Below are positions 956 to 62,038 of a stretch of 64,000 bases of DNA, piece by piece. Every line of letters begins with the position of its first letter. The first letter of the stretch is position 1. This DNA comes from Candidatus Binataceae bacterium (lineage in GTDB: Bacteria; Desulfobacterota; Binatia; Binatales; Binataceae): assembly GCA_035541875.1 (NCBI GenBank), contig DATKML010000034.1:56367-120366 (forward strand). Direction: 5' to 3'. A program made the position numbers and the translations under genes. The notes under the pieces were generated by a model. It was not told the origin of the DNA and did not search any database. It saw only the letters and a program-made list of their open reading frames with translations.

Positions 956-1157
956 GGAAAGTAAGCTTTGCCTCTTATCTCGGGCGTCCTGGAGACGCGC
1001 AATTCCGGCGCTATCGCACGGTCGCGAAGTTCGCGCGCACCAAGAATACCAACATCGACGCGAAAGCTAAAACCGATCGGCGGCGTCGCGAGCCATCCAA
1101 TAAAAAATGACGTGACCTCTTGGCGCTCTTCGGGTTGAGGTTCCTGTGCTCCTCAAA

Positions 1158-3320: not shown

Positions 3321-3458
3321 CAATATCGCTGCCTCCGCCGAGCTTTGCGATCTGCTCGACCGAACCGGCTTATCCGGGGTGGAAAAGGCGCATGCCCGGA
3401 AGCTCCCTACGAGCATGGCTCGATCATTTACGAAACCTCGAAATCCAGCCGGTAGGAC

Positions 3459-7007: not shown

Positions 7008-7154
7008 ACCGACGCCACCGCCTCCACCTCATTTCGGACCCCTTCAGCATACCCTACCCCGACCGTTGCCGGTCAAGGCTAACCGCTAGGGATAGTATGC
7101 TGATTCACTAACAGGCCCCGCATCTTGAGTCGGGGTCTGTGGATAATACGAGCA

Positions 7155-7787: not shown

Positions 7788-7854
7788 GCACTAGTCGTAG
7801 CCAGCCTAGCCCACCCGAGTCAAGTAGAACGCCATTATCAATGCGTTATGACTG

Positions 7855-10190: not shown

Positions 10191-10192
10191 TA

Positions 10193-45302: not shown

Positions 45303-45374
45303 GCCCCGGTAGTGAAAAGGACATCACGGAGGTCTCCGGAACCTCAAGTCCGGGTTCGACTCCCGGCCGGGGCA
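45303..45374 (+). tRNA. tRNA-Arg (anticodon CCG).
   Basis: I folded it manually. The acceptor stem GCCCCGG pairs with CCGGGGC. The D-stem is GTGA/TCAC. The anticodon stem is GAGGT/ACCTC with loop CTCCGGA (U33, CCG, G37). The T-arm is CCGGG-TTCGACT-CCCGG with discriminator A. CCA is not encoded. Confidence 0.85.
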
Positions 45375-46087
45375 CTCAAATCAGTGAAATTCCTTGAAAG
45401 TAAAAGACTCTTTCCCGCAACGGCTACGGCGGGCGGCACGGTTTGGCTCAGGTTTGGCAGCGGCTGCAAAGGAACTGCCCGTTTTGGCAGCCGCGTGATG
45501 GCCAAAAAGAACGCATCGAGGTCGAGCGCCTTCGCCTCCGGCGTGCGCGTCCAACGCCCATAAACCTCGTCGATCTTCTTCACGCCGACGTGACCGAGCT
45601 GATGCGCGATCCATTACAGCGGCTTGTCCGCACAGATCATCAAAGTGGTGTAGGTGTGACGCAGGTTGTAGAGCACACGATAATCGACGCCGGCTCGTGC
45701 CACTGCGCGCCGCCACGGATGATCGCCCACGCTGCGCTCCAGCATCGGTCGCCCCTTCGGGCCGCAGAAAACGAACCGACTCCGGAGCCGATTGAGCACG
45801 AGTACGTCGAACAGCGCCAGCCTCACCGGCTCAAACATCTCCACCGTACGCCGTGAACTCTTCGTCTTGAGCCGGAGCGAGACCTCGCCCTTCTCGAGCA
45901 TCTGCTGGCGCACCAGGATCGTGCTCTCAGCGAAGTTGATATGATCAGGCATCAGAGCCAAAGCTTCGGACGGGCGCAGCCCGCTAAGCGCCAGCAGAAG
46001 GTAAAGCGCACGCTGTTGACCCTCACAGACGGCAAAGATCCGATTCCGTAGGATCGCCCTCCATATCGGCGGGCATGCGGTTAGCAC
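45344..46087 (-). pseudogene. Tyrosine recombinase (phage-type integrase) remnant. It is N-terminally truncated and frameshifted.
   Basis: ORF 45614-46087 carries the catalytic-domain LSGLRPSEALAL and LRHTYTTLMI (box II) motifs. The continuation with the catalytic Tyr (KKIDEVYGRW) lies in a different frame, 45344-45583. The 3-prime end overlaps the tRNA-Arg 3-prime half, and the N-terminal core-binding domain is missing. Confidence 0.7.
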
Positions 46088-46343
46088 GGTAAAAGAGCAC
46101 TTCGGCGGAGATTCCGATGATCTGTGCGAGCTGCTCGATCAGGTAGTTGGGTGGTGGACGCCGCCGGTCGTGTTCCACCGCGTTCAAGTAGGGCGCATCA
46201 ACCGGCCTTCCGTCTTCGCGCCGCAGACGTTCGGCAACCTCCTTTTGGGTTAATCCGGCCCGCTTGCGAGCCTCCGTAAGGATCGTCCCGAACGTTCTCA
46301 TACTTTCAGGTTTCTGCATTTCATTCAGGACTTCATCCCTCAA
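46023..46343 (-). CDS. XRE-family helix-turn-helix transcriptional regulator.
   Basis: The HTH is TFGTILTEARKRAGLTQKEVAERL. It is 106 aa and its 3-prime end overlaps the truncated integrase. Confidence 0.6.
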   Translation of the reverse strand: MRDEVLNEMQKPESMRTFGTILTEARKRAGLTQKEVAERLRREDGRPVDAPYLNAVEHDRRRPPPNYLIEQLAQIIGISAEVLFYRANRMPADMEGDPTESDLCRL

Positions 46344-46734: not shown

Positions 46735-47649
46735 CTATTTTAGGTTAGGCGTTGGTGATGGAGGCGGATGAATCTGGAGTATCGCGGCCATCCGCGAAAG
46801 CTCTGCCAGCGAATCGCTACCCATTCGTCTTCGCAAACGAGCGCGATGCACCTTGACCGTTTGCTCGGTTATTCCCAACTCCGCAGCAACTTCTTTGTTC
46901 AGAAGGCCAGCAGTAATCAATATGAAGACCTCGCGCTGCCGAGGAGGTAAAGATTTGAAGCGTCGCTCAAGATCGAGGTGCTGAGCACGCGGGATCTTTT
47001 GTGCACGGGAGGGTCGGCTTTCGATTTTGGTCGCTGAGGCGGGTCCGGCGTTGATCTTCTCGCGGAAATCGTGTGTCGATAGCGCGGCGTGCTTGCGCTC
47101 GAGTGCGGCGGCAATTATCCGCCCCGCAATTCGTAGGCGCCGCAAGTCATTAGCCGACCATGCGCATTGGCCGCGAAACTTGCCAAATGTCAGACCACCC
47201 AACACTCGCTTCGCAACGTAAATAGGTAAAACGACCTGTGCCTTAGGGCCGTGAACCTTTAAGAAGTTGCGCAGCTTGACCGCTCTTTTCGGAAGTTCCT
47301 CGGGACTTGCGTAGACGACCGTTCGGCCGTCGAGGATTTGCGCTGTTATCCACGGCGATATTTGCATCGAGCGCATCTTGGGAGGCAACGGTGGAATTTC
47401 CGGCCTCGCCCACCAATAAGTGGCGATGAAGCCGACCTCCGAGCTTGCCCGCTCCCAGACGGCACCTCGGTCCAAATCGAGTGTAATGATCATCTCTCGG
47501 AGCCATCGCTCTATCTCTGGATCGATATCCTCAACTGAGGTGCTCTCGAGGGCACCCGACATTCGGTCAATAAGTTCCTCGAATTCGTTTCCTTCAGTCT
47601 CGGAAGGCTCATCCCGCCTACGCGTAACGATTTTCGCTTCTTCAGGCAT
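46735..47649 (-). CDS. LuxR-family transcriptional regulator with an N-terminal GAF-like sensory domain.
   Basis: The C-terminal HTH_LuxR is REVFILITAGLLNKEVAAELGITEQTVKVHRARLRRRMG. Confidence 0.7.
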   Translation of the reverse strand: MPEEAKIVTRRRDEPSETEGNEFEELIDRMSGALESTSVEDIDPEIERWLREMIITLDLDRGAVWERASSEVGFIATYWWARPEIPPLPPKMRSMQISPWITAQILDGRTVVYASPEELPKRAVKLRNFLKVHGPKAQVVLPIYVAKRVLGGLTFGKFRGQCAWSANDLRRLRIAGRIIAAALERKHAALSTHDFREKINAGPASATKIESRPSRAQKIPRAQHLDLERRFKSLPPRQREVFILITAGLLNKEVAAELGITEQTVKVHRARLRRRMGSDSLAELSRMAAILQIHPPPSPTPNLK

Positions 47650-47952
47650 AAAGATGATTCCGCTGCCGCGCTCCCATTACCGTTCCCAAAGACCTTCAAA
47701 GGCGCTCTTAAACTACTTTCGGCCAGCTCTCGTCAGATCTCAGAGCAACCGGATTAGCAAATTTTAATTACTCCGGGAGTACATCTAAAGTCTAACTAGA
47801 CTCGTGGATCGGGACCTAACGATAATCGCGCAGCGGCGCTGAAGGAGCACGTTTATTAATGCAGCTTGAATCCCTCCAGGAAATTAGTTGAGCGTAGACG
47901 CTCGTCAGCCGCTCTCGGGATGCGAACGAATGGGTCGGGAATAATTACGAAA

Positions 47953-49350
47953 ATGAGTTTGAAAGCGCCGCCGATACGGCCATCGACGGGGGCGTCCGCA
48001 CTAAGGGGCGCCCTTTTTGCAATATTCGCAGTTTTCGGAGTTTTGTCAGGCTGCGCACAAACCACTACACCTACACCGCTTCAGATGCAGCAGAACGCGG
48101 GGGTGAATCCAGCGCCAGCTCCTGCGGCGCCAATAGCGGTTCAGCCGCCGAACATGCCGTCGCCAGCTGCAGCGAAACCGGCAGGCCAGTTCGAACAACC
48201 GCCTGTGATTCCCATCAGCGATCTCCTCGCGGCGAGCATGCAATCCGGGCCGGGCTTTCAGGTTGGACAGCAAGTTGCAACTAACGGCGCGATGGGTGAG
48301 TACACCATAACGGCAAGCGCCGACGTGTTTCATGAAGACGCCGGGACCTATCAAGTCGAAAGCCTCGATTTGTTGAAAATTCGACTTTCTGAGGTTCCTG
48401 CGATCGCGCAACTGGACAATATGAGCAACTCGACGGTATTCGCCAAGGAGTTCGCTGTGAGCGCGGCACGTCCGCTGACAGCTGCCGGGCAGATGGTGAT
48501 TCATCCCATGGATACGATCACCGGATTGCCGAGCGGGATAGGCGAATTTTTCGGTCGCGTCGACCTGGGCGCCAAAAGTCTTGCGGCCAGCTCTTCGGTG
48601 AGCCAAGCGGCCGCTCAGACCGGCGATGTCACGCTCACGGCTTTGGGTTACGACCAAGTCCGGCGGGATCTGGCCCGTAAGCTGCACGTTGATCCGTACA
48701 GCTCCGATCCGATTCTGACCAAGCGACTTAATCATGTCGCTTGGGTGATGTTCTCTGCGCGTATTACCGTCGATGCCGCAATGATGGCGGTGCCCGCATC
48801 GATGATCATCACTGGCACCGAGTTTACCGACGATCTCGTCTATCAAACACCGAAAGCTGACCTGATCCTTCTCGTCGAAAAGAAGCTCACGAGCTTTGGA
48901 TTGTCGAAAACAGAAATCGCTACCTTCACGCACAACAACGCAATCCCCTTGAGCCTACAAGTTGCGGCGGTCCGGCAACTCGATGGTCTTGGAGTCATTC
49001 CGGGACGGCGCACGGCGGCCGTGGCACTGGGCAATGCGCTGACGGAGTATCAGGCGCGGTTTCTCGTGACTTCGCTGAGCATGCTAGGTCAGTGGAGTAC
49101 ACAGAAGAGTCCAATCAACAAAATTCAGGTCACCGGGGTGCTCGTGGCGCGCGATCAAAACGGCACGACGATAATACCCGCGCCCGTCGATTATCTCTCA
49201 TGGACGCCCCGCATCGCCGGTTTCGCGACCAACTCGCAGTTACTCGCAAAACAAAATCGCGTGCTCTGGATCACCGGCAAAATGACCGCGCTCGCGCAGC
49301 AGCAACTGACGGCGAGTGGTTGGACTGTTCAACAAGGGTCGCAACTTTAG
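47953..49350 (+). CDS. Hypothetical lipoprotein with a Pro-rich linker.
   Basis: The lipobox is FGVLSGC after a hydrophobic signal, followed by a PAPAP-rich linker. The start is trimmed to the ATG at 47953. Confidence 0.5.
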   Translation: MSLKAPPIRPSTGASALRGALFAIFAVFGVLSGCAQTTTPTPLQMQQNAGVNPAPAPAAPIAVQPPNMPSPAAAKPAGQFEQPPVIPISDLLAASMQSGPGFQVGQQVATNGAMGEYTITASADVFHEDAGTYQVESLDLLKIRLSEVPAIAQLDNMSNSTVFAKEFAVSAARPLTAAGQMVIHPMDTITGLPSGIGEFFGRVDLGAKSLAASSSVSQAAAQTGDVTLTALGYDQVRRDLARKLHVDPYSSDPILTKRLNHVAWVMFSARITVDAAMMAVPASMIITGTEFTDDLVYQTPKADLILLVEKKLTSFGLSKTEIATFTHNNAIPLSLQVAAVRQLDGLGVIPGRRTAAVALGNALTEYQARFLVTSLSMLGQWSTQKSPINKIQVTGVLVARDQNGTTIIPAPVDYLSWTPRIAGFATNSQLLAKQNRVLWITGKMTALAQQQLTASGWTVQQGSQL

Positions 49351-49493
49351 TTAACCAAAACGCAATAAGCGACCTCTATCACGGCGGCTGTGCTGCCATA
49401 AACTCTAACCAATTGATTGCGGGGCTTCTCTGCATTTCTGGCAAGTGCATGCAAGTAGAGTTAGATCAACCTTATTTTAGAGAGGATGGAATA

Positions 49494-50255
49494 ATGGCTA
49501 ACGAACCGGCGAAACTTCTAACGGGCCTGCTATCCGCGACACTCGCTGGATGGCTGCTCATGGGGTGCTCGCAGACCACGGCGCCCGCGCCCAACATCGT
49601 TCAGCGGGTAGAAGGCGAGACGCCTGCGCCACCGCCACCCAGCGGCTTTCTCGGTAGCGACTATGCGCTATTGAAGCCGCCCGCTGAAGGATCCGACCAG
49701 AAGGCGATGCTCGTCTACACGGACGCGAGCGCGAGCTTCGCTTCCTACAGCAAGATCATGATCGCGCCAGTCACCTTTTGGGGCGATGAGCACTCGAACC
49801 TCTCAGCCGCCGATCAACAGACCCTCTGCGACTATTTCTACAACGTGTTGAAAGAAGAACTGGGCAAGAACTTTACTTTAGTGAATGAACCCGGCCCCGG
49901 TGTTGCCAAGTTGACCGTCGCGTTGACCGACGCCAGCTCAGCGATTCCCGTGCTGCGTACGATCGCGGTAGTGGTGCCTCAAGCTCGTGTGCTCAGCATG
50001 ATCAAGCAGGGGCTGACCGGGACCTATTCATTTGTCGGTTCGGCTACGGGAGAAGCCAAGCTGACCGATTCGGTGAGCGGACAATTGCTGGCGGCCTGGT
50101 CTGATAAGCGATTCGGTAGTGGCGCGCTCAAGAATGTGACGGTCTGGCAATGGGGCGATGCCGACAATGCGATGAACTACTGGGCCGACGGCCTTGATCA
50201 GCGCTTGGCGACATTAGGCATCCAGCATACCGCTACACCAGCGGCGACCAAATGA
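49494..50255 (+). CDS. Hypothetical lipoprotein (DUF3313-like architecture).
   Basis: The ATG at 49494 is preceded by AGAGGA. The lipobox is LLMGCS. The listed N-extended ORF 49092..50255 overlaps the previous gene and is rejected. Confidence 0.5.
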   Translation: MANEPAKLLTGLLSATLAGWLLMGCSQTTAPAPNIVQRVEGETPAPPPPSGFLGSDYALLKPPAEGSDQKAMLVYTDASASFASYSKIMIAPVTFWGDEHSNLSAADQQTLCDYFYNVLKEELGKNFTLVNEPGPGVAKLTVALTDASSAIPVLRTIAVVVPQARVLSMIKQGLTGTYSFVGSATGEAKLTDSVSGQLLAAWSDKRFGSGALKNVTVWQWGDADNAMNYWADGLDQRLATLGIQHTATPAATK

Positions 50256-50286
50256 TATCACCCATCAAAGATCCAAGGAGACAATT

Positions 50287-52017
50287 GTGACCAAGCGAAT
50301 GAAAACCTGGAAGTGGCGGGTTGTCGGCGCCGTCCTGATCGCCACCCTGTCGCTGGCGGGGTTGACGCACCGTCTTTCTGCGCAGGCTTCCTCAGACAAA
50401 CCCAACATTCTGTTCGTCATGACCGATGACGTAGGTTGGATGACGCCGGGAGTCTACCACCAAGGCCTGATGGTGGGTGAAACCCCCAACATCGACCGTA
50501 TCGCTAAGGAAGGCGTGAAGTTCCTGGACGCCTACTCCGAGCAGAGCTGCACAGCCGGGCGTAACGCCTTCATGACCGGCATGAACCCGCTGCGTACGGG
50601 CCTGATCGTTCCGCAATTGCCCGGCAGCCCGAGTTGGCTGCGGTCCGGCACACCTTCGCTTGCCAAAATTCTGCTCGACCTCGGCTATAACACAGGCCAG
50701 TTCGGCAAGAACCATCTGGGCGACAACGTAGAGGCGCTACCGACCGCGCACGGCTTCCAGGAGTACTGGGGTTACCTCTACCACCTAGACGCGATGCAGC
50801 AGGTGAGCTTCCCCGATGTCTACAAAGACAAGGACACGATCGGCGTCGCCCCGCCGTGCAAGGCGACCTCGATCCCCGGCGTCCCCGACGATCCTAATGC
50901 GGTGGACCCGGCGACGACGACCTGTCTAACGCCGCCGCGGCCCGTACTTTGGTGTCACTCCGCGGACGGCACGCAGGCCAAACAGACCTGCAAGGATGAG
51001 GGTCCGGTTACTGACGTTCGCTCAGAAACCCTGGAGGAGGAGGTTTCGGCGAAGGTGATCGACTTCCTGGACCGCAACGACCCCAAAAAGACCGGCAAGC
51101 CGTTCTTTGCGTACTACAACACGGTGCGGATGCACGTCGACACGTTTCTGCCTAAAAAATACCTCGACATGCTGGGCACGCGGGGTGGCAAGGACTGGGG
51201 CATCAACGAAGCTGGCGAGAAGCAGATGGACGACAACCTCGGCTACGTGCTGAAGAAACTCGAGGACATAGGCCAGCTCGACAACACGATCATCATTTGG
51301 ACCTCTGACAACGGCGCCCAGACCCAAACCTATCCGGACGGCGGGATCACCCCCTTCAAAGGCGATAAGCTGACGACTTGGGAAGGCGGGATGCGCGTGC
51401 CGTTGCTTGTGCGTTGGCCAGGACACATCAAGCCTGGTACGGTCACAAACCAGATTTTCTCGATGCTGGATTGGTTGCCTACGCTGGTCAACATTGCGGG
51501 TGGCCCCAAGGGCGACGGTCTAAAGAAAAAGATCGAGGCCGGCCAGTATCCGGGCTTCTTGAAGACCACGCTCGACGGTTTTGACCAGCGTGATTTCCTG
51601 GAAGGCAAGTCCGATTCCGCGCGCGACCACCTCTTCTACTACACGGGCACCATACCGTCAGCAGTGCGGTATAAGAACTGGAAAATGTACTATACGATGG
51701 AAGGCTCGACATCCGCAGGCGCGCTCAAAGGGGCCCAGAGCTATGGCTGGACCCAGATGACCAATCTAATGCGGGATCCGTTTGAGCAGAATGTCGGCGA
51801 TGTTCAAAAGTCGGCCACGTCGATCGGTGGCGCGATTACCTCGCCGAGCACAGCTTACCTCTATGACTGGCAGATGCTGCCCATAGGGCAGTTGCTGTGG
51901 ATGAAGGAACTCGAGACCTACCGGAAGTTCCCACCGTTGCAAGTACCGGCGTCCTACAACCTCGACGAAATCGAAAAGTTGATCGCAGCCCAGGCAAGCC
52001 ACTCGCATAGTGATTAA
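50287..52017 (+). CDS. Arylsulfatase (formylglycine-dependent sulfatase family), secreted.
   Basis: It has a signal peptide. The sulfatase signature is SCTAGRNAFMTG (C-x-A-x-R). The metal ligands are MTDDVGW. Confidence 0.85.
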   Translation: MTKRMKTWKWRVVGAVLIATLSLAGLTHRLSAQASSDKPNILFVMTDDVGWMTPGVYHQGLMVGETPNIDRIAKEGVKFLDAYSEQSCTAGRNAFMTGMNPLRTGLIVPQLPGSPSWLRSGTPSLAKILLDLGYNTGQFGKNHLGDNVEALPTAHGFQEYWGYLYHLDAMQQVSFPDVYKDKDTIGVAPPCKATSIPGVPDDPNAVDPATTTCLTPPRPVLWCHSADGTQAKQTCKDEGPVTDVRSETLEEEVSAKVIDFLDRNDPKKTGKPFFAYYNTVRMHVDTFLPKKYLDMLGTRGGKDWGINEAGEKQMDDNLGYVLKKLEDIGQLDNTIIIWTSDNGAQTQTYPDGGITPFKGDKLTTWEGGMRVPLLVRWPGHIKPGTVTNQIFSMLDWLPTLVNIAGGPKGDGLKKKIEAGQYPGFLKTTLDGFDQRDFLEGKSDSARDHLFYYTGTIPSAVRYKNWKMYYTMEGSTSAGALKGAQSYGWTQMTNLMRDPFEQNVGDVQKSATSIGGAITSPSTAYLYDWQMLPIGQLLWMKELETYRKFPPLQVPASYNLDEIEKLIAAQASHSHSD

Positions 52018-52046
52018 CCGTGCAGCGCGCGCCTGCAGCTAGAAGC

Positions 52047-52075
52047 GGGCGACCCTAAGAGGGTCGCCCTTCGCG
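52047..52075 (+). terminator. Hairpin after the sulfatase gene.
   Basis: GGGCGACCCT-AAG-AGGGTCGCCC is a 10-bp stem. The downstream T-tract is imperfect. Confidence 0.4.
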
Positions 52076-52164
52076 CTTTAGAGAGGACGTACTAGTACCT
52101 AACAACGCACCTCCGGTTGCTCCGGGATCAGCACGGAGGTTAACTCAACACAGGAACTAAGCCA

Positions 52165-53202
52165 ATGATGAGATCACTTACCCGTGCCCGTCCCTCTCAG
52201 ACGGCTACGGTATTAGCGCTCCTGATCACGCTGCTGGCGGCGCGAGCGAACGCTCAGAATGACCCACTGCCGTCCTGGAACGAGGGCCCGGCCAAGCAGT
52301 CAATCATAACCCTCGCGAAGGATGTCACGGATAAGTCGAGCCCCTCGTATGTAGAACCACAAGATCGCATCGCCACCTTCGACCAGGACGGGACTCTCTG
52401 GGTTGAACACCCGATATACACACAGGTGGCCTTCGCGCTTGACCGTGTGGTGGAATTGGCGCCGAAGCATCCGGAGTGGAAAGCCACTGAGCCCTTCAAG
52501 GCGGTTCTCACTGACGACAAAGCCGCCATGGCCAAGTTTACGCTCCGCGACTTCGAAAAGATTATTTTCGCGACCCACACTGGCATGACCGTGGAACAAT
52601 TCAATGCGATCGCCAAGGATTGGATCGCCAAAGCCAGAAATCCGCGATGGAAGAGGCCCTATACTGACCTTGTATATCAGCCGATGCGAGAGGTTCTCGA
52701 CTATCTGCGGGCTAATGGCTTCAAGACCTACATCGTTACGGGGGGTGGTCAGGACTTCGTTCGGTCTTACGCGGTGCAAACCTACGGCATACCGCCCGAG
52801 CAGATTATTGGGTCGGCGCTCGAGACCGATTACACCTATAACAAAGAAGGTCAGGGGATATTGATGCGGCCTCCCAAGGTGTTGCTTAACAACAACTTCT
52901 CGGGCAAGCCGGAAGACATCTATCTGTTCACCGGGCGTCGTCCTCAGGCCACATTCGGCAATTCGACTGGCGACAGGGAGATGCTGGAATACACCCAAAC
53001 TGGCGGCAAGGAGGCGTTGATGATGCTGGTACTTCACGATGATCCGACCCGCGAGTATGCCTACGGCCCGGCTCAAGGGCTGCCGGATACCAAGGTCGGT
53101 ACTTTTTCGAAGGCACTGTATGACGAAGCGAGGACCCGAGGCTGGAACGTCATCAGCATGAAAAAGGATTGGAAACGAATCTTCGCCTTTGACCCCCAAT
53201 AG
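52165..53202 (+). CDS. Secreted HAD-superfamily hydrolase (putative phosphatase).
   Basis: It has a signal peptide. HAD motif I is FDQDGTLW. The later motifs are YIVTGGG and FGNSTGD. Confidence 0.65.
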   Translation: MMRSLTRARPSQTATVLALLITLLAARANAQNDPLPSWNEGPAKQSIITLAKDVTDKSSPSYVEPQDRIATFDQDGTLWVEHPIYTQVAFALDRVVELAPKHPEWKATEPFKAVLTDDKAAMAKFTLRDFEKIIFATHTGMTVEQFNAIAKDWIAKARNPRWKRPYTDLVYQPMREVLDYLRANGFKTYIVTGGGQDFVRSYAVQTYGIPPEQIIGSALETDYTYNKEGQGILMRPPKVLLNNNFSGKPEDIYLFTGRRPQATFGNSTGDREMLEYTQTGGKEALMMLVLHDDPTREYAYGPAQGLPDTKVGTFSKALYDEARTRGWNVISMKKDWKRIFAFDPQ

Positions 53203-53259
53203 ACCAGACTGATATCGCCCTCGGTCCAGCGGGCGACAACACCGACTTCGAGGATACTG

Positions 53260-55341
53260 ATGAATCTGAGTGCCGTTTTTCGCTGTGTCCGAGCAGCAAG
53301 CCGATTGTGCCTTGCGATTTCGGTCGTGATGTTCGCAATCTCAGGGTTTGGCCGGGCTTGCGCGGCCGACAGCATTGAAGGTCGCGTGCTTGGCGGAGGC
53401 GCGCCGATCGTCAAATCAACTGTGACCCTATGGTCCGCGAGTGCCGATGCGCCCAAGCAGTTAGCGCAGACACAGACCGGCGATAACGGTCACTTTACGC
53501 TGAGCGCAGAGGGATCCGCTGATGGCAGCCTTTATCTGGTGGCGACCGGCGGGGAGCCCACTGCCAATAGGGGCGGCGGGAACAACCCGGCGATTGTGCT
53601 CATCGCTGTCCTCGGCAGCAAACCGCCGGCCAAAGTCACGATCAACGAGTTCACGACCGTGGCCTCGGTGTGGACTAACGCCCAGTTTCTGGAAGGCAGC
53701 GTACTCCAGGGTCACGCGCTAGGGTTGCGAATCGCGGCCGGCAATGTGCCCAATTTCGTCGACCTCGGGAGCGGCGGTTACGGGCCGATGATTGAGGACG
53801 CCCTCAACAGCAGCCAGACCCCGACGATGGCGAATTTTGCCACCCTCGCCAACGTATTGGCGGGTTGCGTCACACAGGTGAAGGCTGATGCCTGCAGCAG
53901 CTTATTCGCTGCGGCGACGCCCCCGAGCGGACAGGTTCCGATCGATACGCTGACTGCGGCTGAGTCAATCGCTCGGAATTCTGCGTACCAGCCGAGTAGG
54001 ACGTTCGCATTGCTGAATACCTTTTATCCAGTTCCGAAGGGTAAGCAGCTACGCGTTACGCCGTTTCTGCCCTATCTTAGCTTCGCCCCGAGCGCGTGGG
54101 TCTTGCCTCTTAAGTTCGCGGGCGGTGGTTACATCGGTGGCGCCAAAGTGATGTTCGACAGTGAAGGTAACGCATGGAGCGGCGCCAATTTCATAGTTGG
54201 TTCGCAGGGGCACGATGCCCTCTGGGACGGCAATATGTCGGAGTTCGCTCCGAATGGCCGACCGCTTTCGCCGATGACTACGGGCTTTCATGGCGGCGGT
54301 CTGCAAGGCCCCGGGTTCGGTACCGCGATTGACGCCAACGACCGCGTCTGGATCGACAGCACCAGCGGAAGGACGATCTCGCTGTTCGACCACCAGGGTC
54401 AGCCGCTGTCGCCGCCTGAGGGCTACAACTTCGGCGGGAAGCTCGGCTACATGCAGGGCGTTATCGTTACGCCCAGTGGTGACGTCTGGGCAGTCGATTT
54501 CACCAACGACAGGGTGGTGTTCATGCCCAAGGGCGATCCTGCCAAGGCCAAGTTCTATTGCGAGTCGACGAACGGTAAACCCAACAAGGACAGTCCGTGC
54601 AAGTTGAGCGGCCCGTTCCATCTTGTCATCGACCAGCAAGACCGGATTTGGATCGACAACGCGATCGGCGACACCGTGACCCGCTTCCCCGCGAGCGATC
54701 CCACCAAAGCCGAAGTGTTTCCAACTGGCGGCCACAGCGGCAAGGGTATGGCGGTCGACAGCAAGGGCAATGTCTGGATCACCAATACGTTGGGCGCTGG
54801 GATGACGCTCGCGACAAAACTCAAGCTGCTCGACCTGAAGCTCAGAGGGCGGATGGCAGACGCCGATCAACTGGTCCTCAGGAATCTGTTGGCGAAGCCC
54901 GGTTTAGGCAGCGTGTCGATGCTGCGACCAGACGGCAGCCCCGCACCGGGATCACCGTTCAATCCAGGCAGCATCTGGGGTGCTTGGGCTGTGTCGATAG
55001 ACGGTAACGACCACGTCTGGGTTTCCAATTTTGCGCCCGGCGGCGGCGTCAGCGAGTTGTGCGGTGCACGTACTGAGACCTGTCCGCCCGGCATGAAGAC
55101 CGGTGATCCGATTTCCCCGCCCGGCGGCTACAAGGGCGGTGGAATGCAAATGCTGGTGGATGCCTCGATCGACCCGGCTGGCAATGTCTGGGTGTCTAAT
55201 AACTGGCAGGATCCCGCGTCTTGCTACGGCAAGCCGGATGAGAGTCTTTCCACCCGCTGCGGCGGCCAAGGCATGACGGTCTTCTACGGCATGGCCAAGC
55301 CGGTGCGCTCGCCCCAGATAGGCCCAGCCCGCGGGTTCTAG
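53260..55341 (+). CDS. Secreted protein with an N-terminal carboxypeptidase-regulatory-like domain and a six-bladed NHL/Vgb-lyase-like beta-propeller.
   Basis: It has a signal peptide. An early GRVLGGGAPIVKSTVTLW beta-sandwich motif is present. Blade motifs recur: DRVWIDS, GDVWAVD, DRIWIDN, GNVWITN, DHVWVSN, GNVWVSN. Confidence 0.6.
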   Translation: MNLSAVFRCVRAASRLCLAISVVMFAISGFGRACAADSIEGRVLGGGAPIVKSTVTLWSASADAPKQLAQTQTGDNGHFTLSAEGSADGSLYLVATGGEPTANRGGGNNPAIVLIAVLGSKPPAKVTINEFTTVASVWTNAQFLEGSVLQGHALGLRIAAGNVPNFVDLGSGGYGPMIEDALNSSQTPTMANFATLANVLAGCVTQVKADACSSLFAAATPPSGQVPIDTLTAAESIARNSAYQPSRTFALLNTFYPVPKGKQLRVTPFLPYLSFAPSAWVLPLKFAGGGYIGGAKVMFDSEGNAWSGANFIVGSQGHDALWDGNMSEFAPNGRPLSPMTTGFHGGGLQGPGFGTAIDANDRVWIDSTSGRTISLFDHQGQPLSPPEGYNFGGKLGYMQGVIVTPSGDVWAVDFTNDRVVFMPKGDPAKAKFYCESTNGKPNKDSPCKLSGPFHLVIDQQDRIWIDNAIGDTVTRFPASDPTKAEVFPTGGHSGKGMAVDSKGNVWITNTLGAGMTLATKLKLLDLKLRGRMADADQLVLRNLLAKPGLGSVSMLRPDGSPAPGSPFNPGSIWGAWAVSIDGNDHVWVSNFAPGGGVSELCGARTETCPPGMKTGDPISPPGGYKGGGMQMLVDASIDPAGNVWVSNNWQDPASCYGKPDESLSTRCGGQGMTVFYGMAKPVRSPQIGPARGF

Positions 55342-55451
55342 TTTCTGAACACACCAAAGGTGACCCAGGGCACGGGATCGCAAGCTCGATCAGACTGATC
55401 GAATTGTCGGACGTAACCGGACGTAACTACTATAAGAGCGGAGGCTGTTTT

Positions 55452-56315
55452 TTGAAATTTCGATGCACGAGGGCGATTGTTCTGGTCGGGCTTCTTGGCA
55501 TGGTGCTCGTTGCTCCCGTCTCGGCGCAAGCGAACGACGACAAATCGCTGGACGAAGTCAACAAGCAGCTCTCGAATCCGATTTCGAGCATCTGGGCACT
55601 ACAGCTTCAGGAGAACACCTACTGGCTGAACAACCCCGAGCGTAACGCGGTGAACCTTCAATTTCAGCCGGTGCTACCGTTAGCACTGACTGACGATTGG
55701 AATCTAATCACGCGGCCGGTGTTCCAGGTAATGAACTCTTCGCCGTACGTCAACGAGACCGGTAATCTTCATCGCGTGACCGGCTTCGGTGACACGATCC
55801 TGGCGACGATGCTCTCGCCTAGTCCGAAGCTAGCGGGTCCGTGGCTGCTGGGCGCAGGTCCTAGTTTCATCCTTCCTACCGCGAGTAATTCTCGCCTTGG
55901 GCAGAACAAATGGCAGTTGGGGCCGTCAGGCGTGTTCGGTTACCTGGGCGACAAATGGATCGCCGGCGTATTTCCCCAGCAGTGGTTCTCGGTCGGTGGC
56001 CCAGGTCCTCAGACCGTTAGTCAGATGAACATCCAGTACTTTTTCCAATATTTTCCGGGCAAAGGCTGGGGCATCGGGACGTCACCGAACATGCTCGTTA
56101 ACTGGTATGCCAGCAAGAGCGCGAACGACATTACGTTTCCTATCGGGATGCAAATCAGCAAAGTGATCAGGATTGGCCCGCTTCCTGTGAAATTTGCCGT
56201 TCAAGGCCAGTACATGCCCGTCCATCCGGAGGAATTCGGCCAGAAGTGGAATCTACAGTTCGCGGTGACTCCGGTTATCCCGAAGCTGATCAAAGGGAAT
56301 CTCTTCGGCGATTGA
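55452..56315 (+). CDS. Outer-membrane beta-barrel protein (transporter-like; MetA/phenol-pathway OMP-like).
   Basis: The TTG start at 55452 follows GGAGG. The signal peptide is MKFRCTRAIVLVGLLGMVLVAPVSAQA. It shows an alternating amphipathic strand pattern and a C-terminal aromatic residue. Confidence 0.5.
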   Translation: MKFRCTRAIVLVGLLGMVLVAPVSAQANDDKSLDEVNKQLSNPISSIWALQLQENTYWLNNPERNAVNLQFQPVLPLALTDDWNLITRPVFQVMNSSPYVNETGNLHRVTGFGDTILATMLSPSPKLAGPWLLGAGPSFILPTASNSRLGQNKWQLGPSGVFGYLGDKWIAGVFPQQWFSVGGPGPQTVSQMNIQYFFQYFPGKGWGIGTSPNMLVNWYASKSANDITFPIGMQISKVIRIGPLPVKFAVQGQYMPVHPEEFGQKWNLQFAVTPVIPKLIKGNLFGD

Positions 56316-56383
56316 CGCACGCTGGCAATGTGGCGTTGAAACAAACCGACTTTGACAGCTGTTTCGTCCAAGGACAAAGCAAT

Positions 56384-57169
56384 TTGCACTACTTCAAGCG
56401 AAATCCTTCCCGCGTAATCTCGCTGTTTCTCATCAGCGTTTTGCTGCTCACCACTCGGTCCGCTCGTGCACAGGGGGTTGTGCTCCCACTCCCGGCAGCG
56501 GATCAGCAGATGATCTCTGCTCAGCTTGGTCCGGGTATCGTGGGCGCCGCATTGCCGAGTGTTCCGATCGCGGACGTTTCGACTTACTTTCCACTTCAGG
56601 AGAAAGCTTCGAACTATCAGGTCACAAGTGGTCCGAACGTTGGAAACACGCAAACACTTGGCCTCGCCAAAGTCAGACGTCCGGGCGGGAAGCTGGCTTG
56701 GCGCTTTCAGTTTTCGCCCTCGCTGGCTGGCTTCATCAAGCAGACTGCGCAGGGCGACCTGATTATCCCGGCTGTCGGCGACATGGCGGAGGGCGTGGTG
56801 GTTATCACCACGCCGGCCAATCCCTTTATGCTCAAAGGCATGAAGCCCGGCGAATCCCGGTCTTACACGCAACAGGTCGTGGTTAATGCGCTGGATGACC
56901 CGGCGAACCAAGAATACTCAGGGTCATTAAACGGGATCTACACCTACCTGGGAACGTACCAGGTGAAAGTACCGGCCGGCAGCTATGCGGCCGTGCTTCT
57001 ACGTCTGAAGTGCGAAGGCAAGGTCGGTCCGGCCCAGACCAACGACACAGCTTATTACTTCTTCGCGCCCGGCAAGGGCATGATAGCAATGATCAGCCAG
57101 GAGGATGCGACCGCATTCTGGATAATCCATATCGACACCACATCCGGCAAAGTGCTTACGGCCAACTGA
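56384..57169 (+). CDS. Hypothetical secreted protein.
   Basis: An internal TTG start yields the signal peptide ...RVISLFLISVLLLTTRSARAQG. The listed N-extension overlaps the upstream gene. Confidence 0.45.
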   Translation: MHYFKRNPSRVISLFLISVLLLTTRSARAQGVVLPLPAADQQMISAQLGPGIVGAALPSVPIADVSTYFPLQEKASNYQVTSGPNVGNTQTLGLAKVRRPGGKLAWRFQFSPSLAGFIKQTAQGDLIIPAVGDMAEGVVVITTPANPFMLKGMKPGESRSYTQQVVVNALDDPANQEYSGSLNGIYTYLGTYQVKVPAGSYAAVLLRLKCEGKVGPAQTNDTAYYFFAPGKGMIAMISQEDATAFWIIHIDTTSGKVLTAN

Positions 57170-57266: not shown

Positions 57267-57728
57267 ATGGACATACAAATGCAGTCAGCCACCATAGGCG
57301 CCTGGAGTGGCAACTGGGCTTGGAGCCTCCCAATAATCGTTCTCAACGTGATGATTCACGTGACGGTCCTCGCTTTCGTCAACGAAAAGCTCGACGGCGT
57401 AATGAGCGGTGTAGTGGGTCGTCGGGACCGTATGCCGCGATTCGCACTGGTTATGGGCGCGACGACTCTATTGGCGACAATGCTTCATGGGATTGAGGCA
57501 TTCATCTGGGCGGCTGCATACCGCGCTTTGGACTCTTTACCCGACTACAAATCCGCGATGCTTTATTCGCTCAGCGCAATGACGAGTTATGGTCACGCGA
57601 ATCTATATCTCGATCCCCAGTGGCAAATGATGGGTGCTCTAGAAGCGCTGAACGGAATGCTGCTACTCGGATTAACCACCGCCTTTCTGTTCTCGATGAT
57701 CCGGAAGATTTCACAGGCCCCTGGGTAG
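57267..57728 (+). CDS. Small membrane protein with a two-TM pore-domain-like topology (ion-channel-like).
   Basis: It has TM1, then a pore-helix-like LYSLSAMTSYGHANLY (compare K-channel TMTTVGYGD), then TM2. The filter is degenerate. Confidence 0.4.
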   Translation: MDIQMQSATIGAWSGNWAWSLPIIVLNVMIHVTVLAFVNEKLDGVMSGVVGRRDRMPRFALVMGATTLLATMLHGIEAFIWAAAYRALDSLPDYKSAMLYSLSAMTSYGHANLYLDPQWQMMGALEALNGMLLLGLTTAFLFSMIRKISQAPG

Positions 57729-57885: not shown

Positions 57886-58314
57886 TCATCCAGTATGATG
57901 GAGTGGGTTCACTGAGCTTTGGACGCTGCCTTGAGCCATCAACCAAGGACCGCCCACGGGCTGGTCGGGATCGTAACCGATGATTTCGACTTGCTCCTCG
58001 GCGCCGTCACGCAGCTTCAGGAAGCCCCAACTCAGCATAATCGGCTTCGCCCAGAGTACTTCCGGAAGAGTCGCAACCCTCTTAACACTGGCGTCGTTGA
58101 AGAGCTTGGCGAAATCGACGTTGCGAATGCCCTTTGAGGCGATCCAGATATCGGCTCCTGAAGCGTGGCGGATGAGCGAGGTCGCGTTGCCCATCATCCC
58201 GATGTACAGGCCTACCTCAACGATAGTTAAGAACGGCGATATGACTACTCCGCCCAGCGTGACCGCGAGGCGTAAGCGATTGTAGAGACTCATCCGCAGC
58301 GCCAGCCATAGCAC
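57886..58314 (-). pseudogene. Truncated DevC/FtsX-like ABC transporter permease (N-terminal 142 aa only).
   Basis: The N-terminal TM plus the start of the periplasmic domain (LWLALRMSLYNRLRLAVTLGGVVISPF...GADIWIASKG) resemble DevC/MacB-type permeases of about 390 aa. The ORF ends prematurely and no continuation exists in any frame. Confidence 0.5.
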
Positions 58315-58341
58315 GGATTCGTAACCTTTCTTGCCTGCTAG

Positions 58342-58953
58342 TCAGTGGGCCGATGAGTGCGCCGGAGCATCCCAGGCGACGTGTCCAACTGCCGTCACAT
58401 CGAGGTCGACCTGTTTGGCTACGGAAAGGAAAAGGATGCTCGGATCTTTCATGCCCCACGCCACATAAGGGATCACAAACTGGGTATGAGCCGTGAGTTC
58501 ATTGCCCACTAACTTGCCTTGTAGATCGATACCCTGTGGATGCTCCATACCGTGGATTAGGAGAGTTCCGTCGAGGTGAGCAGAAAAGTAACCGTCCTCG
58601 CCGAGGGAGCCAGTCACATGACGAGCGGTAAAGACGATAGTCGGATACTTGGAGGATTCAAGCACCTCGCGGTTCATGTTTGCGTCGCGCGAGGGCATCT
58701 GGCTGTCGCCGCTGGTTGCATCAATTACTACGGACCCATTCGCTGTGCTTGTTGTGGGATCGGCAGCGATCGTTCCCTGCGTAAGCTTGAACGTACCGTG
58801 AGTATCGTGGAGCGCACCCGGTAAGCTGAACTGGATGATAGTTCGCGCGGGATCGAGCGTGACGGTTCCAGCGCGTGGTTCGGCTGCTAAAGCGTGGCTA
58901 CGCCAACCGAGCGAGGCCGCGACGTAGAGGCAGGCAACGCTCCTATATAACAT
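58342..58953 (-). CDS. YceI-like periplasmic (polyisoprenoid-binding) protein.
   Basis: It has a signal peptide and an 8-strand lipocalin-like YceI pattern. It overlaps the upstream aminotransferase by 11 nt. Confidence 0.7.
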   Translation of the reverse strand: MLYRSVACLYVAASLGWRSHALAAEPRAGTVTLDPARTIIQFSLPGALHDTHGTFKLTQGTIAADPTTSTANGSVVIDATSGDSQMPSRDANMNREVLESSKYPTIVFTARHVTGSLGEDGYFSAHLDGTLLIHGMEHPQGIDLQGKLVGNELTAHTQFVIPYVAWGMKDPSILFLSVAKQVDLDVTAVGHVAWDAPAHSSAH

Positions 58954-60304
58954 TGATTACCCGCCGGGCCGTGTTCAGTGCCTCCGTCCAGAAGCTGGTC
59001 GAACTATGCATCAGATCGACTACACGCTCGAGCGCATCGGCGAACTGCGCCAATTGCGCTTCGGTGATCACGAGCGGTGGTGCAATCTTCAAGACCATGA
59101 AATTGTTGCCGCAAATCTGGCTGAAGATACCTTCGCGAAACAGCCGCATCACAACGACCTGGCCAAACATCGCGGGATGAATCCGGGCAAAGGCTTCGAA
59201 CAGGATACGCAAACGGAGTTTTTTGGGTGCACGAAACTCGATTCCGGAGAGCATCCCGCGACCGCGAATGGCTTTGATCATGTCGTATTTCTGAAAGCGT
59301 GAGGTGAGGTTCTCGCGGAAGCGCTCACTCATACGCTCCGCGCGCGCACCGAGGTCACCGTCCATGAGAACCTCCAGAGTGGCCAATCCCGCACGCATCG
59401 CGAGTCCGTTTTCACCGTAAGTCGATGCATGAATCATTGATCGCTTGAAAGAGGTGAAGACGGAATCGTAGATCGGATCCCTCATCAGCACTGCCGCTGA
59501 CGGCACCAGTCCCCCACTCATCGCCTTGGCCATGATCACCATGTCCGGCTCGACACCGAAATGGTGTGCGGCAAGGAACGGTCCCGTCCGAAACATCCCG
59601 GTCTGAACCTCGTCGAGCACCATCAAAGTGCCATATCGTCGGCAGAGTTCGGAGGCCTTTTGCAGATAGTCTGCCGATGGCACGAGCACACCTGACTCGG
59701 CCTGAATCGGCTCAAGGATAAAAGCGCCAAAGCGGCGCGATGCCAAGCGAGTCTTCAGCGCTTCCAAATCACCGAAGGGGACCGGCTCGGTGTCGGGCAA
59801 CAACGGACCAAAATCGGCCGTCCAGAACGGGTTATCCATCAAAGATAGCGCACCGCAGGTCAAGCCGTGAAAGCCACCCGAGGCATACAGGATGCCGGGA
59901 CGTTTGGTGTGAGCGTGGGCGAACTTGATGACCGTTTCGACCCCTTCACTCCCGGAGCTGCAAAAATAGACTTTGGATAACTTACCGCCGGCATTGGTAC
60001 AAAGTCGCAACGCTAGTTCGCCGGCCAGTTCAGGAACATGACCCTGCAACATCGCGGGGCCGTTGCCGTCAAGTTCCTCCTTTAGGGCGCGAATCACCGC
60101 CGGATGATTGTGGCCGATATTGTGCACGCAGTAACCGGAATTGAAATCGAGGATGCTGCGTCCATCTTCAGTGTAAAGCTCAGCACCGAGACAGCTCTTG
60201 TAGCGCACATTCATATCGAGAACGTCCAGGAACCGCACCCATTGGGGATTAACGTGATTCTCGTAGGGTTCCTGACTATTGGCGGGCAGTTTGGAAGCGA
60301 GCAT
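58943..60304 (-). CDS. Class III PLP-dependent aminotransferase.
   Basis: The PLP-Lys region is DEVQTGMFRTG...MAKAMSGG and the fold-type I class III pattern is present. Confidence 0.85.
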   Translation of the reverse strand: MLASKLPANSQEPYENHVNPQWVRFLDVLDMNVRYKSCLGAELYTEDGRSILDFNSGYCVHNIGHNHPAVIRALKEELDGNGPAMLQGHVPELAGELALRLCTNAGGKLSKVYFCSSGSEGVETVIKFAHAHTKRPGILYASGGFHGLTCGALSLMDNPFWTADFGPLLPDTEPVPFGDLEALKTRLASRRFGAFILEPIQAESGVLVPSADYLQKASELCRRYGTLMVLDEVQTGMFRTGPFLAAHHFGVEPDMVIMAKAMSGGLVPSAAVLMRDPIYDSVFTSFKRSMIHASTYGENGLAMRAGLATLEVLMDGDLGARAERMSERFRENLTSRFQKYDMIKAIRGRGMLSGIEFRAPKKLRLRILFEAFARIHPAMFGQVVVMRLFREGIFSQICGNNFMVLKIAPPLVITEAQLAQFADALERVVDLMHSSTSFWTEALNTARRVINVI

Positions 60305-60347
60305 AAGAAATTTACCTCTTATCGCGAGTGCCGCACTCGGACATTGA

Positions 60348-60806
60348 TCATTGCGGACCAGAACTAATCTGTGTCGCCAGCCACGCGCGCAGAGCCTGTT
60401 TTTCAGCGTTGCTCAGGCGCGCACTATGATCGAGCACTGTGTAGTTTCCGGGCGGCATCGAGCCGTTATTGATCGTCGATTCGATACTCTTCAGTTGGGT
60501 CTGCTGATGATGTGCGTCGTAGGTCGACCAATCTGAAAAATTGAGAGCCTGCCGCGCGGAACCAGCAGCCATGTAAGCTGGAGATAGAGCTGCGTACCAC
60601 GGCGCAGTGCCTGTCGTGCTGTGGCAGGTGTAGCACGATCGTTCGAGAATCTGATGAATGCGCGGATCTGTCGTAACTCCGCCATGCGAGGAGTTCGCGA
60701 GCTTCGTCGGCACCGATGAACTCTCCTGGGGTGTCGAACAAGCAGAGAGAAAAGATGCTCCAGCGACAACAAACAGTAGTCCGCAAAGGGGGCTGCGTTT
60801 GATCAT
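60348..60806 (-). CDS. Haem-binding-domain lipoprotein (CxxCH; Haem_bd-like).
   Basis: The lipobox is FLSACS. The single CYTCH motif is followed by a conserved W/Y-rich stretch. Confidence 0.6.
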   Translation of the reverse strand: MIKRSPLCGLLFVVAGASFLSACSTPQESSSVPTKLANSSHGGVTTDPRIHQILERSCYTCHSTTGTAPWYAALSPAYMAAGSARQALNFSDWSTYDAHHQQTQLKSIESTINNGSMPPGNYTVLDHSARLSNAEKQALRAWLATQISSGPQ

Positions 60807-60865
60807 GATAAATCAGCCATTCCTCATTGTCGGATGGTGTGCGATCGGTGAAGCCTTTCGACTCA

Positions 60866-62038
60866 TCAGCTTGCCGTTGCCATCATCGCCATCGCGATTC
60901 GCGCAATCGTTCCCGTCAGTCGCCGTCTTCGCGAGAGATAATGAATCACTCGTCGTCGCGTACCGGGGCGCCTGGCGAGAAACAGCATTGCCTTGGTCGC
61001 TATGGCATAACCACGGAATAAACGGTGAGCTTCGCGCTCGTACGGCTCAAGACTTTTCTCGCTGCTGTTGGCCTGAAGCAATGCCGAAAGATGGCGACCC
61101 AAGATAAGCGCCGAATTGAACGCGATCGAAAGCCCATCGCCCGCAATCGAATCAACAAAGCCAGCCGCGTCGCCGATTAGAACGAAGCGTTCCGCAACGC
61201 GGCGACTGACGCCGCAAGCCATCGGTCCAGCGCCTTTCGGCATCGATATTGGCTCAGCGTCCTGGAGCCGCGTATTAAGCAGCGGAAAGCGTGTAAGCAA
61301 AGTGGGAATCGTCGGCCGGTAGAACGCGCCATCCTGCCATGTGAAGTTGACCGAGACTGTGTCCGCAGTGACCGGCGTGACTACGGCTTCGCCAAACGCG
61401 TCGACGTAAACCTCAACGGACTCAGACCATGGCGTGGTCAAAAAATGCTGTCGGAGTGCAAAGCGCCGTGGAAGCGAGCTGACACAGTGCAAACCAGCAC
61501 CACGCCGGAAGAGCGAATGAAGACCGTCAGCAGCAACGACGAGGCTTGCGTGCACAGCGGGGCCAGCTGTTCGTAGTATCGCACCGTCCTTTTCGACTTT
61601 AATGTTGGTGACATTGGTCGCGTAACGGACGGCCACTCCAAGCTGCTGAGCTCGCTGCGTCAGCGCTTTCAGCAGGGTTGTGCGCCGGATTCCCAAGCCG
61701 CCTCCTTGAGGGAGGGGAACTTCGACAGACGAACCATCTTCCTGGAAAAAGTGGATGCCCCTGAAGGATCGGACCTCGGTGTCGTCGAGATGCGCCAACA
61801 CCCCCAAGCGCCGTAAAGCTTCGACACCCGGAGGCAGGACGCCCTCGCCACACGCCTTGTCAGCGGCGAACCCACGCCGCTCCAAAACTATAACGCTCCG
61901 CCCCGCCGCGGCCGCGACGATTGCCGTGGCCAGGCCCGCGGGACCGCCACCAATGACGGCAATGTCGTAACGAGATCGATCGGTCGATAGGTCGCCCTGA
62001 TCTAATCGCGCGTCCGCCGTTATTGGGTGGATTACCAT
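60866..62038 (-). CDS. FAD-dependent oxidoreductase / flavoprotein monooxygenase (geranylgeranyl-reductase-like fold).
   Basis: The motifs are YDIAVIGGGPAGLATA (GxGxxG) and GDAAGFVD. There is a 7-nt overlap with the upstream type III PKS stop. Confidence 0.8.
   Translation of the reverse strand: MVIHPITADARLDQGDLSTDRSRYDIAVIGGGPAGLATAIVAAAAGRSVIVLERRGFAADKACGEGVLPPGVEALRRLGVLAHLDDTEVRSFRGIHFFQEDGSSVEVPLPQGGGLGIRRTTLLKALTQRAQQLGVAVRYATNVTNIKVEKDGAILRTAGPAVHASLVVAADGLHSLFRRGAGLHCVSSLPRRFALRQHFLTTPWSESVEVYVDAFGEAVVTPVTADTVSVNFTWQDGAFYRPTIPTLLTRFPLLNTRLQDAEPISMPKGAGPMACGVSRRVAERFVLIGDAAGFVDSIAGDGLSIAFNSALILGRHLSALLQANSSEKSLEPYEREAHRLFRGYAIATKAMLFLARRPGTRRRVIHYLSRRRRLTGTIARIAMAMMATAS

Follow-up and report, generated by a model that had tools for sequence, protein, structure and literature searches.

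A secreted sulfatase gene array in a Candidatus Binataceae genome combines two recurrent envelope gene blocks

The nearest described analogue of the genes reported here is the Pseudomonas atsACBR-sftR-atsK-sftP cluster, which co-encodes a regulator, an arylsulfatase, and an outer membrane uptake protein for soil sulfate esters; in aerobic soils, organic sulfur dominates the sulfur pool (PMC3596284). We analyzed an array of genes for exported proteins, among them a sulfatase, at positions 47953 to 57169 of a 64,000-nucleotide (nt) stretch of DNA, referred to here as the window. The source is a Candidatus Binataceae metagenome-assembled genome (MAG; ENA ERZ27256510; NCBI proteins HVN90390-HVN90398), in which a 244-kb contig includes the window. 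A further point of comparison is provided by the Bacteroidota polysaccharide utilization loci with S1 sulfatases, where binding proteins, an outer membrane transporter, periplasmic sulfatases, and a dedicated sensor are co-encoded.

A first-pass annotation of this DNA had described seven consecutive same-strand genes, two of them for lipoproteins, behind a GAF-LuxR regulator. Open reading frames (ORFs) confirm seven consecutive plus-strand genes at 47953-57169, and their translations, inspected by eye, show a signal peptide or lipobox at the N terminus of all seven products. Both lipoproteins have lipoboxes, the regulator is where it had been placed, and an eighth same-strand gene follows. For g1, we prefer the start at 47953 over the one set by the gene caller at 48085, since the g1 family conserves the lipobox cysteine. 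The genes and one intervening element are as follows.

46735-47649, minus strand: GAF-LuxR regulator, upstream of and divergent from g1 (Pfam GAF and GerE)
47953-49350, plus strand: g1, lipoprotein without a Pfam family, lipobox VLSGC
49494-50255, plus strand: g2, DUF3313 lipoprotein (Pfam E = 1.2e-41), lipobox LLMGC
50287-52017, plus strand: g3, secreted Cys-type S1 sulfatase (PF00884, E = 1.5e-44), motif CTAGRNAFMTG
52045-52071, plus strand: GC-rich hairpin 3' of the sulfatase gene, at the block junction, possibly a partial terminator
52165-53202, plus strand: g4, secreted hydrolase resembling type IB of the haloacid dehalogenase (HAD) superfamily (PF12710 and PF00702 over cutoff), motif DQDGT
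53260-55341, plus strand: g5, secreted 693-amino-acid (aa) protein with a beta-sandwich, a helical domain, and a 7-bladed propeller, without a Pfam model
55452-56315, plus strand: g6 (OMP6), probable outer membrane beta-barrel, distantly MetA-like (subthreshold PF13557)
56384-57169, plus strand: g7, secreted protein of a DUF3108-like family (relatives match PF21347)
57279-57728, plus strand: g8, ORF for a small multipass membrane protein without a Pfam match, possibly an eighth member

The Pseudomonas cluster relies on a TonB-dependent receptor, an ATP-binding cassette (ABC) importer, a LysR regulator, and a dioxygenase-type alkylsulfatase, all of which are missing from the window array. What the array has instead is a small MetA-like barrel (joined by FadL in relatives), regulation of the GAF type, and lipoproteins that belong to unknown families. 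Searches of the nine products with Pfam and NCBIfam found no TonB-dependent receptor of the SftP/SusC kind, no ABC importer, and no SusD domains. The array resembles the polysaccharide utilization loci in pairing secreted or lipoprotein binders and an outer membrane transporter with periplasmic sulfatases under a dedicated sensor. It differs from them in lacking a SusC/SusD pair and a glycoside hydrolase, in its phylum, and in its hydrophobic-solute-type barrels. No described system of this composition was found in the literature searched, which agrees with the earlier statement that none was known.

The window array joins genes from two envelope blocks, here called A and B, each of which recurs elsewhere. 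In order, it consists of G1-DUF3313-sulfatase from block A, HAD-propeller-OMP6 from block B, and G7, again from block A. The first-pass annotation had treated the seven genes as one module that should co-occur in other genomes. The seven are never found together outside one population, and the part of the claim that stands concerns the two sub-blocks, each of which is conserved in order and strand. The module is real as two linked, recombining blocks and not as a fixed seven-gene system.

Block A was surveyed with g1 as the anchor, using 80 loci from a metagenome scan and four from exact look-ups; fractions are given as the loci with a feature among the loci with enough flank. It is a conserved-order, lineage-typical cluster across approximately 80 Binataceae-like metagenome contigs. 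There are 539 g1 homologues, and every one with a named source is from Binataceae. Immediately downstream of g1 there is a DUF3313 gene in 39 of 67 loci; a sulfatase gene lies within 2.5 kb downstream in 27 of 42, g7 within 8 kb downstream in 15 of 24, and OMP6 within 10 kb in 10 of 23, while a GAF-containing regulator gene lies upstream in 35 of 53. Near g1, no HAD gene (0/23 loci with enough flank) and no propeller gene (0/23) was found. In the gene maps, the block starts with a LuxR-type response regulator, a GAF histidine kinase, and a receiver protein, followed by G1, DUF3313, and the sulfatase. It continues with a small lipoprotein of approximately 105 aa, G7, OMP6 (often in two copies), often FadL/TodX, and a 300-aa protein without a family. 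Genuine, Pfam-confirmed FadL genes follow OMP6 in 13 block A loci. We also observed a gene for a multiheme cytochrome/TPR protein of approximately 810 aa as a conserved neighbor of block A, upstream of the two-component genes, in 16 loci (L065, L066, L068, L101, and others; loci are numbered throughout).

The regulator is tied to block A by its apparent parentage. It was compared with two separate genes beside G1 in L128 (L128:7477-9033). Residues 23-219 of the window protein have 51% identity to the GAF part of the histidine kinase there, whereas residues 214-302 have 75% identity to the helix-turn-helix (HTH) region of the response regulator; against other loci, the same two regions have 31-35% and 57-59% identity, respectively. 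Pfam found no kinase or receiver domains in the GAF-LuxR protein. Because it aligns in two pieces to two genes and has no such domains, the protein looks like a one-component fusion of the kinase GAF sensor and the response-regulator LuxR output of its relatives' two-component pair. If so, a two-component system of GAF kinase and LuxR regulator has collapsed here into one protein, and the case is a clean example of regulator domain fusion. In L128, which is also the closest block A relative, a different propeller gene lies nearby on the opposite strand (L128:3589-4782, minus strand; 397 aa; Pfam Lactonase/NHL/SGL), and the propeller component may there be supplied by another family.

Block B was anchored on the propeller, which has more than 3,400 homologues. 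The survey took one genome per species and returned 63 loci, with neighbor counts over 62; all window proteins were compared with the loci by tblastn, and the neighborhoods were examined by ORF clustering and distance analysis. The hosts are Binataceae, Alpha-, Beta-, and Gammaproteobacteria, Acidobacteriota, Verrucomicrobiota, and Planctomycetota, plus one bin labeled Actinomycetes. The 45 full-length copies are 55-82% identical to the window propeller, and metagenome proteins go up to 87%. Of the 62 loci, 14 have OMP6-like genes, in every case on the strand of the propeller, with 13 of these genes downstream and 7 within 150 nt. A sulfatase gene is present in 13 loci (11 on the same strand) and a HAD gene in 8; DUF1254/DUF1214 proteins are encoded in 8 and LuxR-type response regulators in 10. 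In these species-representative genomes, g1 is never beside the propeller, and g7 is beside it once (L035).

The complete order sulfatase-HAD-propeller-OMP6 recurs in two MAGs. In the Thermoanaerobaculia MAG of L039 the four products have 41, 59, 57, and 51% identity to those of the window, and in the Acidobacteriota MAG of L062 they have 69, 62, 64, and about 40%. Partial versions are found in L057, L043, L002, L017 (Accumulibacter), and L023 and L034 (Rhodopila). The closest relatives of the window propeller stand in three settings: sulfatase-propeller with an OMP6 remnant (L149), a type II secretion system (T2SS) operon followed by propeller and OMP6 (L150), and a bare propeller-OMP6 pair (L151). 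Block B is a recurrent set in Acidobacteriota and, in part, in Proteobacteria and other Binataceae.

Several further observations concern the propeller. In the Binataceae contig of L150 (positions 777-12100), it comes directly after the T2SS operon (E, F, G, J, K, and L) and before OMP6, an adjacency which hints that the propeller is possibly secreted to the outside. In some genomes a second, more divergent paralogue (42-56% identity) lies within 10 kb of the first (L017:19575-21533; L056:2133-4132). A SulP-family sulfate permease with a STAS domain is encoded within 10 kb of the propeller in three genomes (L037, L040, and L051; for example, L051:13577-15367). The cultured Mesorhizobium ventifaucium STM4922 (L009; NZ_CAKXZS010000030.1) has a propeller homologue with 76% identity, without the other genes, and this makes genetics possible.

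How the blocks meet is visible in the window itself. The order of OMP6 and G7 is inverted relative to block A, and the propeller-OMP6 adjacency of block B is retained. Block A copies of OMP6 are 76-84% identical to that of the window, and the copy beside the propeller in L002 is 80% identical to it. In a motif census, 36 of 44 sulfatases from block A carried CTAGR, as did 8 of 19 from block B, where two more carried CTSGR. The sulfatase clade and the OMP6 family are common to both blocks. Mixed arrangements have also arisen independently elsewhere: DUF3313-propeller-G7-OMP in L035, DUF3313 beside the propeller in L002 and L005, and HAD beside G1 in L116. L153, which comes from another sample, is 99.77% identical to the window array over 10.7 kb and differs from it at 13 synonymous, 10 nonsynonymous, and 2 intergenic positions.

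The sulfatase is of the formylglycine type, as first described. It scores 153 bits against PF00884 (cutoff, 25), and its formylglycine motif, CTAGRNAFMTG at residues 88-98, has alanine in place of proline. The metal-binding and catalytic residues are intact (MTDDVGW, GKNHLG, SDNG, and GDKLTTWEGGMRVP, containing DD, KNH, SDNG, and K...EGG), as read from the translation and from alignment to PDB 7AJ0. That structure, of PsFucS1 from SulfAtlas subfamily S1_13, is the best solved relative (E = 8.5e-50). PsFucS1 is the first characterized S1_13 member, and the specificity of the subfamily is otherwise unknown (PMC8484680). Neither protein has a proline in its formylglycine motif (CTSSR in PsFucS1, CTAGR in g3), and the catalytic residues are retained in the two. 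The substrates of PsFucS1, a marine enzyme, are fucoidan oligosaccharides, whereas the context of g3 is without carbohydrate-active enzymes. The C-x-A-x-R motif is of the type recognized by anaerobic sulfatase-maturing enzymes (anSME), not by the classical formylglycine-generating enzyme (FGE).

The assignment of g4 as a secreted HAD hydrolase also stands, with scores of 39.5 for PF12710 (cutoff, 27) and 35.5 for PF00702 (cutoff, 26.4) and a motif I of FDQDGTLW. It matches PDB 4OVY over its whole mature length (E = 2e-89). This close homologue, entitled "haloacid dehalogenase domain protein hydrolase," is an entry that names the fold only and gives no function, and no paper mentioning it was found in the literature searched.

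For g5, described earlier as an NHL/Vgb-lyase-like propeller, the 7-bladed fold was upheld and the family likeness was not. The NHL repeat (PF01436) scores 16.9 bits, under the cutoff of 20, and a few homologues carry a precomputed PF01436. Among 45 full-length homologues there is one invariant aspartate per blade, seven in total, and no invariant histidine; in a 42-sequence alignment, some of the conserved cysteines are invariant and most others are nearly so. The 7-bladed propellers Vgb, YncE, and CylK have 10-13% sequence identity to g5, and, unlike them, g5 has an extra N-terminal beta-sandwich, a helical domain, and conserved cysteines. By these features, the g5 proteins are a family distinct from those of Vgb, YncE, and CylK. 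A role for g5 as Vgb (streptogramin B) lyase was rejected, as it has no invariant histidine and approximately 11% identity.

OMP6 had been called a FadL/MetA-like barrel. The FadL half of that description fell, since g6 has no PF03349 (Toluene_X) match and was rejected as FadL/TodX. The MetA half is retained as a distant likeness: the window protein scores 16.4-16.6 bits against PF13557 (Phenol_MetA_deg; cutoff, 22), and 10 of 42 diverse relatives match that model (best E = 1.3e-5), with one matching MipA and no other family recurring. The family comprises 1,162 close homologues and 4,618 cluster representatives at E ≤ 1e-3. No hydrophobic helix follows the signal peptide, and a simple hydrophobic-alternation analysis for a barrel was not decisive. 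OMP6 is probably an outer membrane barrel, distantly MetA-like. It can be compared with FadL/TodX and MetA-pathway (PF13557) channels in that its relatives match PF13557 weakly and genuine FadL genes occur in related loci; it differs from them in being under the Pfam threshold, in having no FadL match, and in having no aromatic or fatty-acid catabolic genes alongside.

As to the remaining products, g2 scores 143 bits for DUF3313 (cutoff, 26.1). Although g7 itself has no Pfam match, 14 of 15 relatives (60-76% identity) match PF21347 (DUF3108_like) at E ≤ 1, the best at 3.8e-5. G1 has no match in Pfam, among PDB sequences, or in a fold search, and its AlphaFold2 model is poor (predicted local distance difference test score, 62) and without a fold match. 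Profiles of G1, G7, and OMP6 found nothing meaningful among PDB sequences. The literature searched held nothing useful on DUF3313 or on DUF1254/DUF1214 together with a sulfatase.

We infer that the most likely function, tentatively and at somewhat less than even probability, is the capture and desulfation of amphiphilic organosulfates for sulfur and/or carbon. In this scheme an amphiphilic organic sulfate ester would cross the outer membrane through the MetA-like or a FadL-type barrel, and its sulfate would be removed in the periplasm to yield sulfur and/or carbon from soil organic matter. At its core would be a periplasmic sulfatase and OMP6, assisted by binding partners that are lipoproteins or secreted; optional activities on the same or related substrates would come from the HAD hydrolase and the propeller, and a GAF-sensed ligand would control expression. 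Relatives have hydrophobic-solute- or carrier-like genes (FadL, DUF2092, and DUF3108-like). Also counted in favor are the intact sulfatase residues, the export signals on every product, and, as regards selection, the 13 synonymous and 10 nonsynonymous differences from L153. The capture and desulfation or dephosphorylation of a hydrophobic or sulfated substrate suggested in the first-pass annotation is compatible with these sequences. The results support a functional link of an envelope sulfatase, an outer membrane protein, and secreted accessory proteins, but not a fixed seven-gene system.

Several results weigh against organosulfate capture by one system. The full seven-gene fusion is seen only in one population, in three assemblies. 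Precisely where the sulfatase and HAD genes adjoin lies a strong 10-bp GC-rich hairpin (-29.3 kcal/mol for the fold of 52030-52095; z = -2.8), and its position 3' of g3 argues for a candidate transcriptional boundary, at least a partial one. Approximately 40% of propeller genes have no same-strand neighbor within 250 nt, and therefore the propeller does not require the other parts. Neither block includes a substrate clue, an inner membrane transporter, a sulfur-assimilation gene, or a catabolic enzyme. The substrate of the 7AJ0 enzyme is a polysaccharide, fucoidan, and not a hydrophobic ester. A crude six-frame motif search of the 64-kb window, in which anSME would not be reliably detectable, found no FGE-type maturase motif. 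The barrel assignment of OMP6 rests on subthreshold Pfam matches, and G1, the propeller, and OMP6 have neither a Pfam family over threshold nor a characterized relative.

Some of the same proteins could serve other ends. The array might scavenge phosphorus, with the "sulfatase" acting mainly, through the promiscuity of the alkaline-phosphatase superfamily, as a phosphodiesterase or phosphonate-monoester hydrolase that, together with a HAD phosphatase and a propeller hydrolase, frees phosphate from organic esters. The secreted HAD-IB hydrolase with its intact DxDGT motif fits such a role, as do a weak PehA-like NCBIfam match for g3, faint Phosphodiest matches in the sulfatases of related loci, and the setting of L151 (7945-18428), where the propeller-OMP6 pair lies approximately 2 kb from phoR-phoB-phoU-pstBAC with a Phosphodiest-domain gene upstream. 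We consider it quite unlikely, since that Pho link is a single locus, HAD is missing from all 23 informative block A loci, g3 retains the S1 formylglycine signature in full and has true sulfatases as its closest relatives, and the SulP permease occurs near the propeller in three loci. Maintenance or remodeling of the cell's own envelope, in which lipoproteins, barrels, and a sulfatase-fold enzyme would act on outer membrane lipids or surface polymers upon a GAF-sensed stress and not on a nutrient from outside, is unlikely, though it would account for the envelope location of all products, for the lack of an inner membrane importer in the cluster, and for the genes near relatives that encode LolA-like DUF2092, glycine-zipper outer membrane lipoproteins, OmpA, and MlaD/MlaE. 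The known superfamily members that modify the envelope, EptA, LtaS, and YejM, are membrane anchored and without a formylglycine motif, whereas g3 is soluble, has CTAGR intact, and has negligible YejM and LtaS scores. In addition, FadL and MetA-type barrels are known as uptake channels.

A last explanation is that the genes have no common function and that genes for exported proteins came to lie together by chance in a variable region beside a tRNA gene. The restriction of the seven-gene set to one population, the nearby tRNA gene and integrase remnant, and the highly variable propeller neighborhoods are what chance would produce. The retention of order and strand in each sub-block over many contigs or phyla is not, and largely refutes it; neighbors also cluster tightly at the anchor gene and are not spread over the 10-kb flanks, and the two blocks have the sulfatase clade and the OMP6 family in common. 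We therefore rate chance juxtaposition as very improbable.

Organosulfate capture can be extended into a wider and more doubtful proposal, which we put forward as a possibility of rather low probability. The CTAGR sulfatase and OMP6 (with FadL) and the G1, DUF3313, and DUF3108-like partners would constitute an undescribed TonB-independent system for amphiphilic organosulfates, widespread in uncultured soil Binatia, and the propeller family, found in at least 5 phyla at 55-87% identity, would represent a new kind of secreted enzyme with substrates of that class. Sulfate esters are a large share of soil sulfur. The Binatia, abundant in soil and peat but uncultured, have had no sulfatase biology described: sulfatases go unmentioned in the main genomic survey of the phylum, and searches of the literature on Binatota with sulfatase returned nothing useful. 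An envelope cluster that is conserved and regulated and has an atypical sulfatase clade at its center would be a concrete candidate for organosulfur turnover in Binatia. The analysis also flags three families without a Pfam model over threshold or a characterized member, namely, G1, OMP6 (more than 4,600 cluster representatives), and the cross-phylum propeller (more than 3,400 homologues).

The array had also been called part of an acquired island. Three features lie to its left.

45303-45375, plus strand: tRNA-Arg(CCG) found by ARAGORN, a possible integration site left of the region
45614-46087, minus strand: phage-integrase fragment of 157 aa (Pfam Phage_integrase, E = 8e-11, partial)
46023-46343: small HTH_31 gene, from precomputed calls

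The tRNA gene, the integrase fragment, and a slightly lower GC content (0.54-0.59 in the region, compared with approximately 0.61 upstream) point weakly to acquisition; GC downstream is similar to that of the region, block A is typical of the lineage and normally lies beside the multiheme-cytochrome/TPR gene, and a direct repeat of the tRNA-Arg 3' end, as expected of an attachment (att) site, was not found elsewhere in the window. Relocation or duplication next to a degraded integrative element is plausible.

In the intergenic sequences, scans for sigma-70 promoter and terminator consensus sequences found no more sites than in shuffled sequence. A 27-nt direct repeat (TTTAGAGAGGA...CTAAC) has one copy immediately upstream of g2 (49476-49502) and the other immediately upstream of g4 (52077-52103), and an 18-nt sequence from the regulator/g1 intergenic region (47736-47753) recurs inverted upstream of g4 (52112-52129). 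These could be shared regulatory sites, although such matches are expected by chance in 15 kb. Short direct and inverted intergenic repeats occur in about the number expected by chance and were not relied on.

Beyond g8, one more operon adjoins the array.

57886-63120, minus strand: operon for a type III polyketide synthase, a FAD monooxygenase, a Haem_bd protein, a class-III aminotransferase, YceI, and a 142-aa fragment resembling the MacB periplasmic domain

A functional link of the cluster to this operon was dropped, since the operon is missing from all related loci. In its own right, the operon resembles those for phenolic-lipid biosynthesis. Relatives of g8 were found near L128 (65%), L023, and L034, and Ion_trans_2-type channel genes recur near G1 and propeller clusters elsewhere (L068, L079, L130, L132, and L149).

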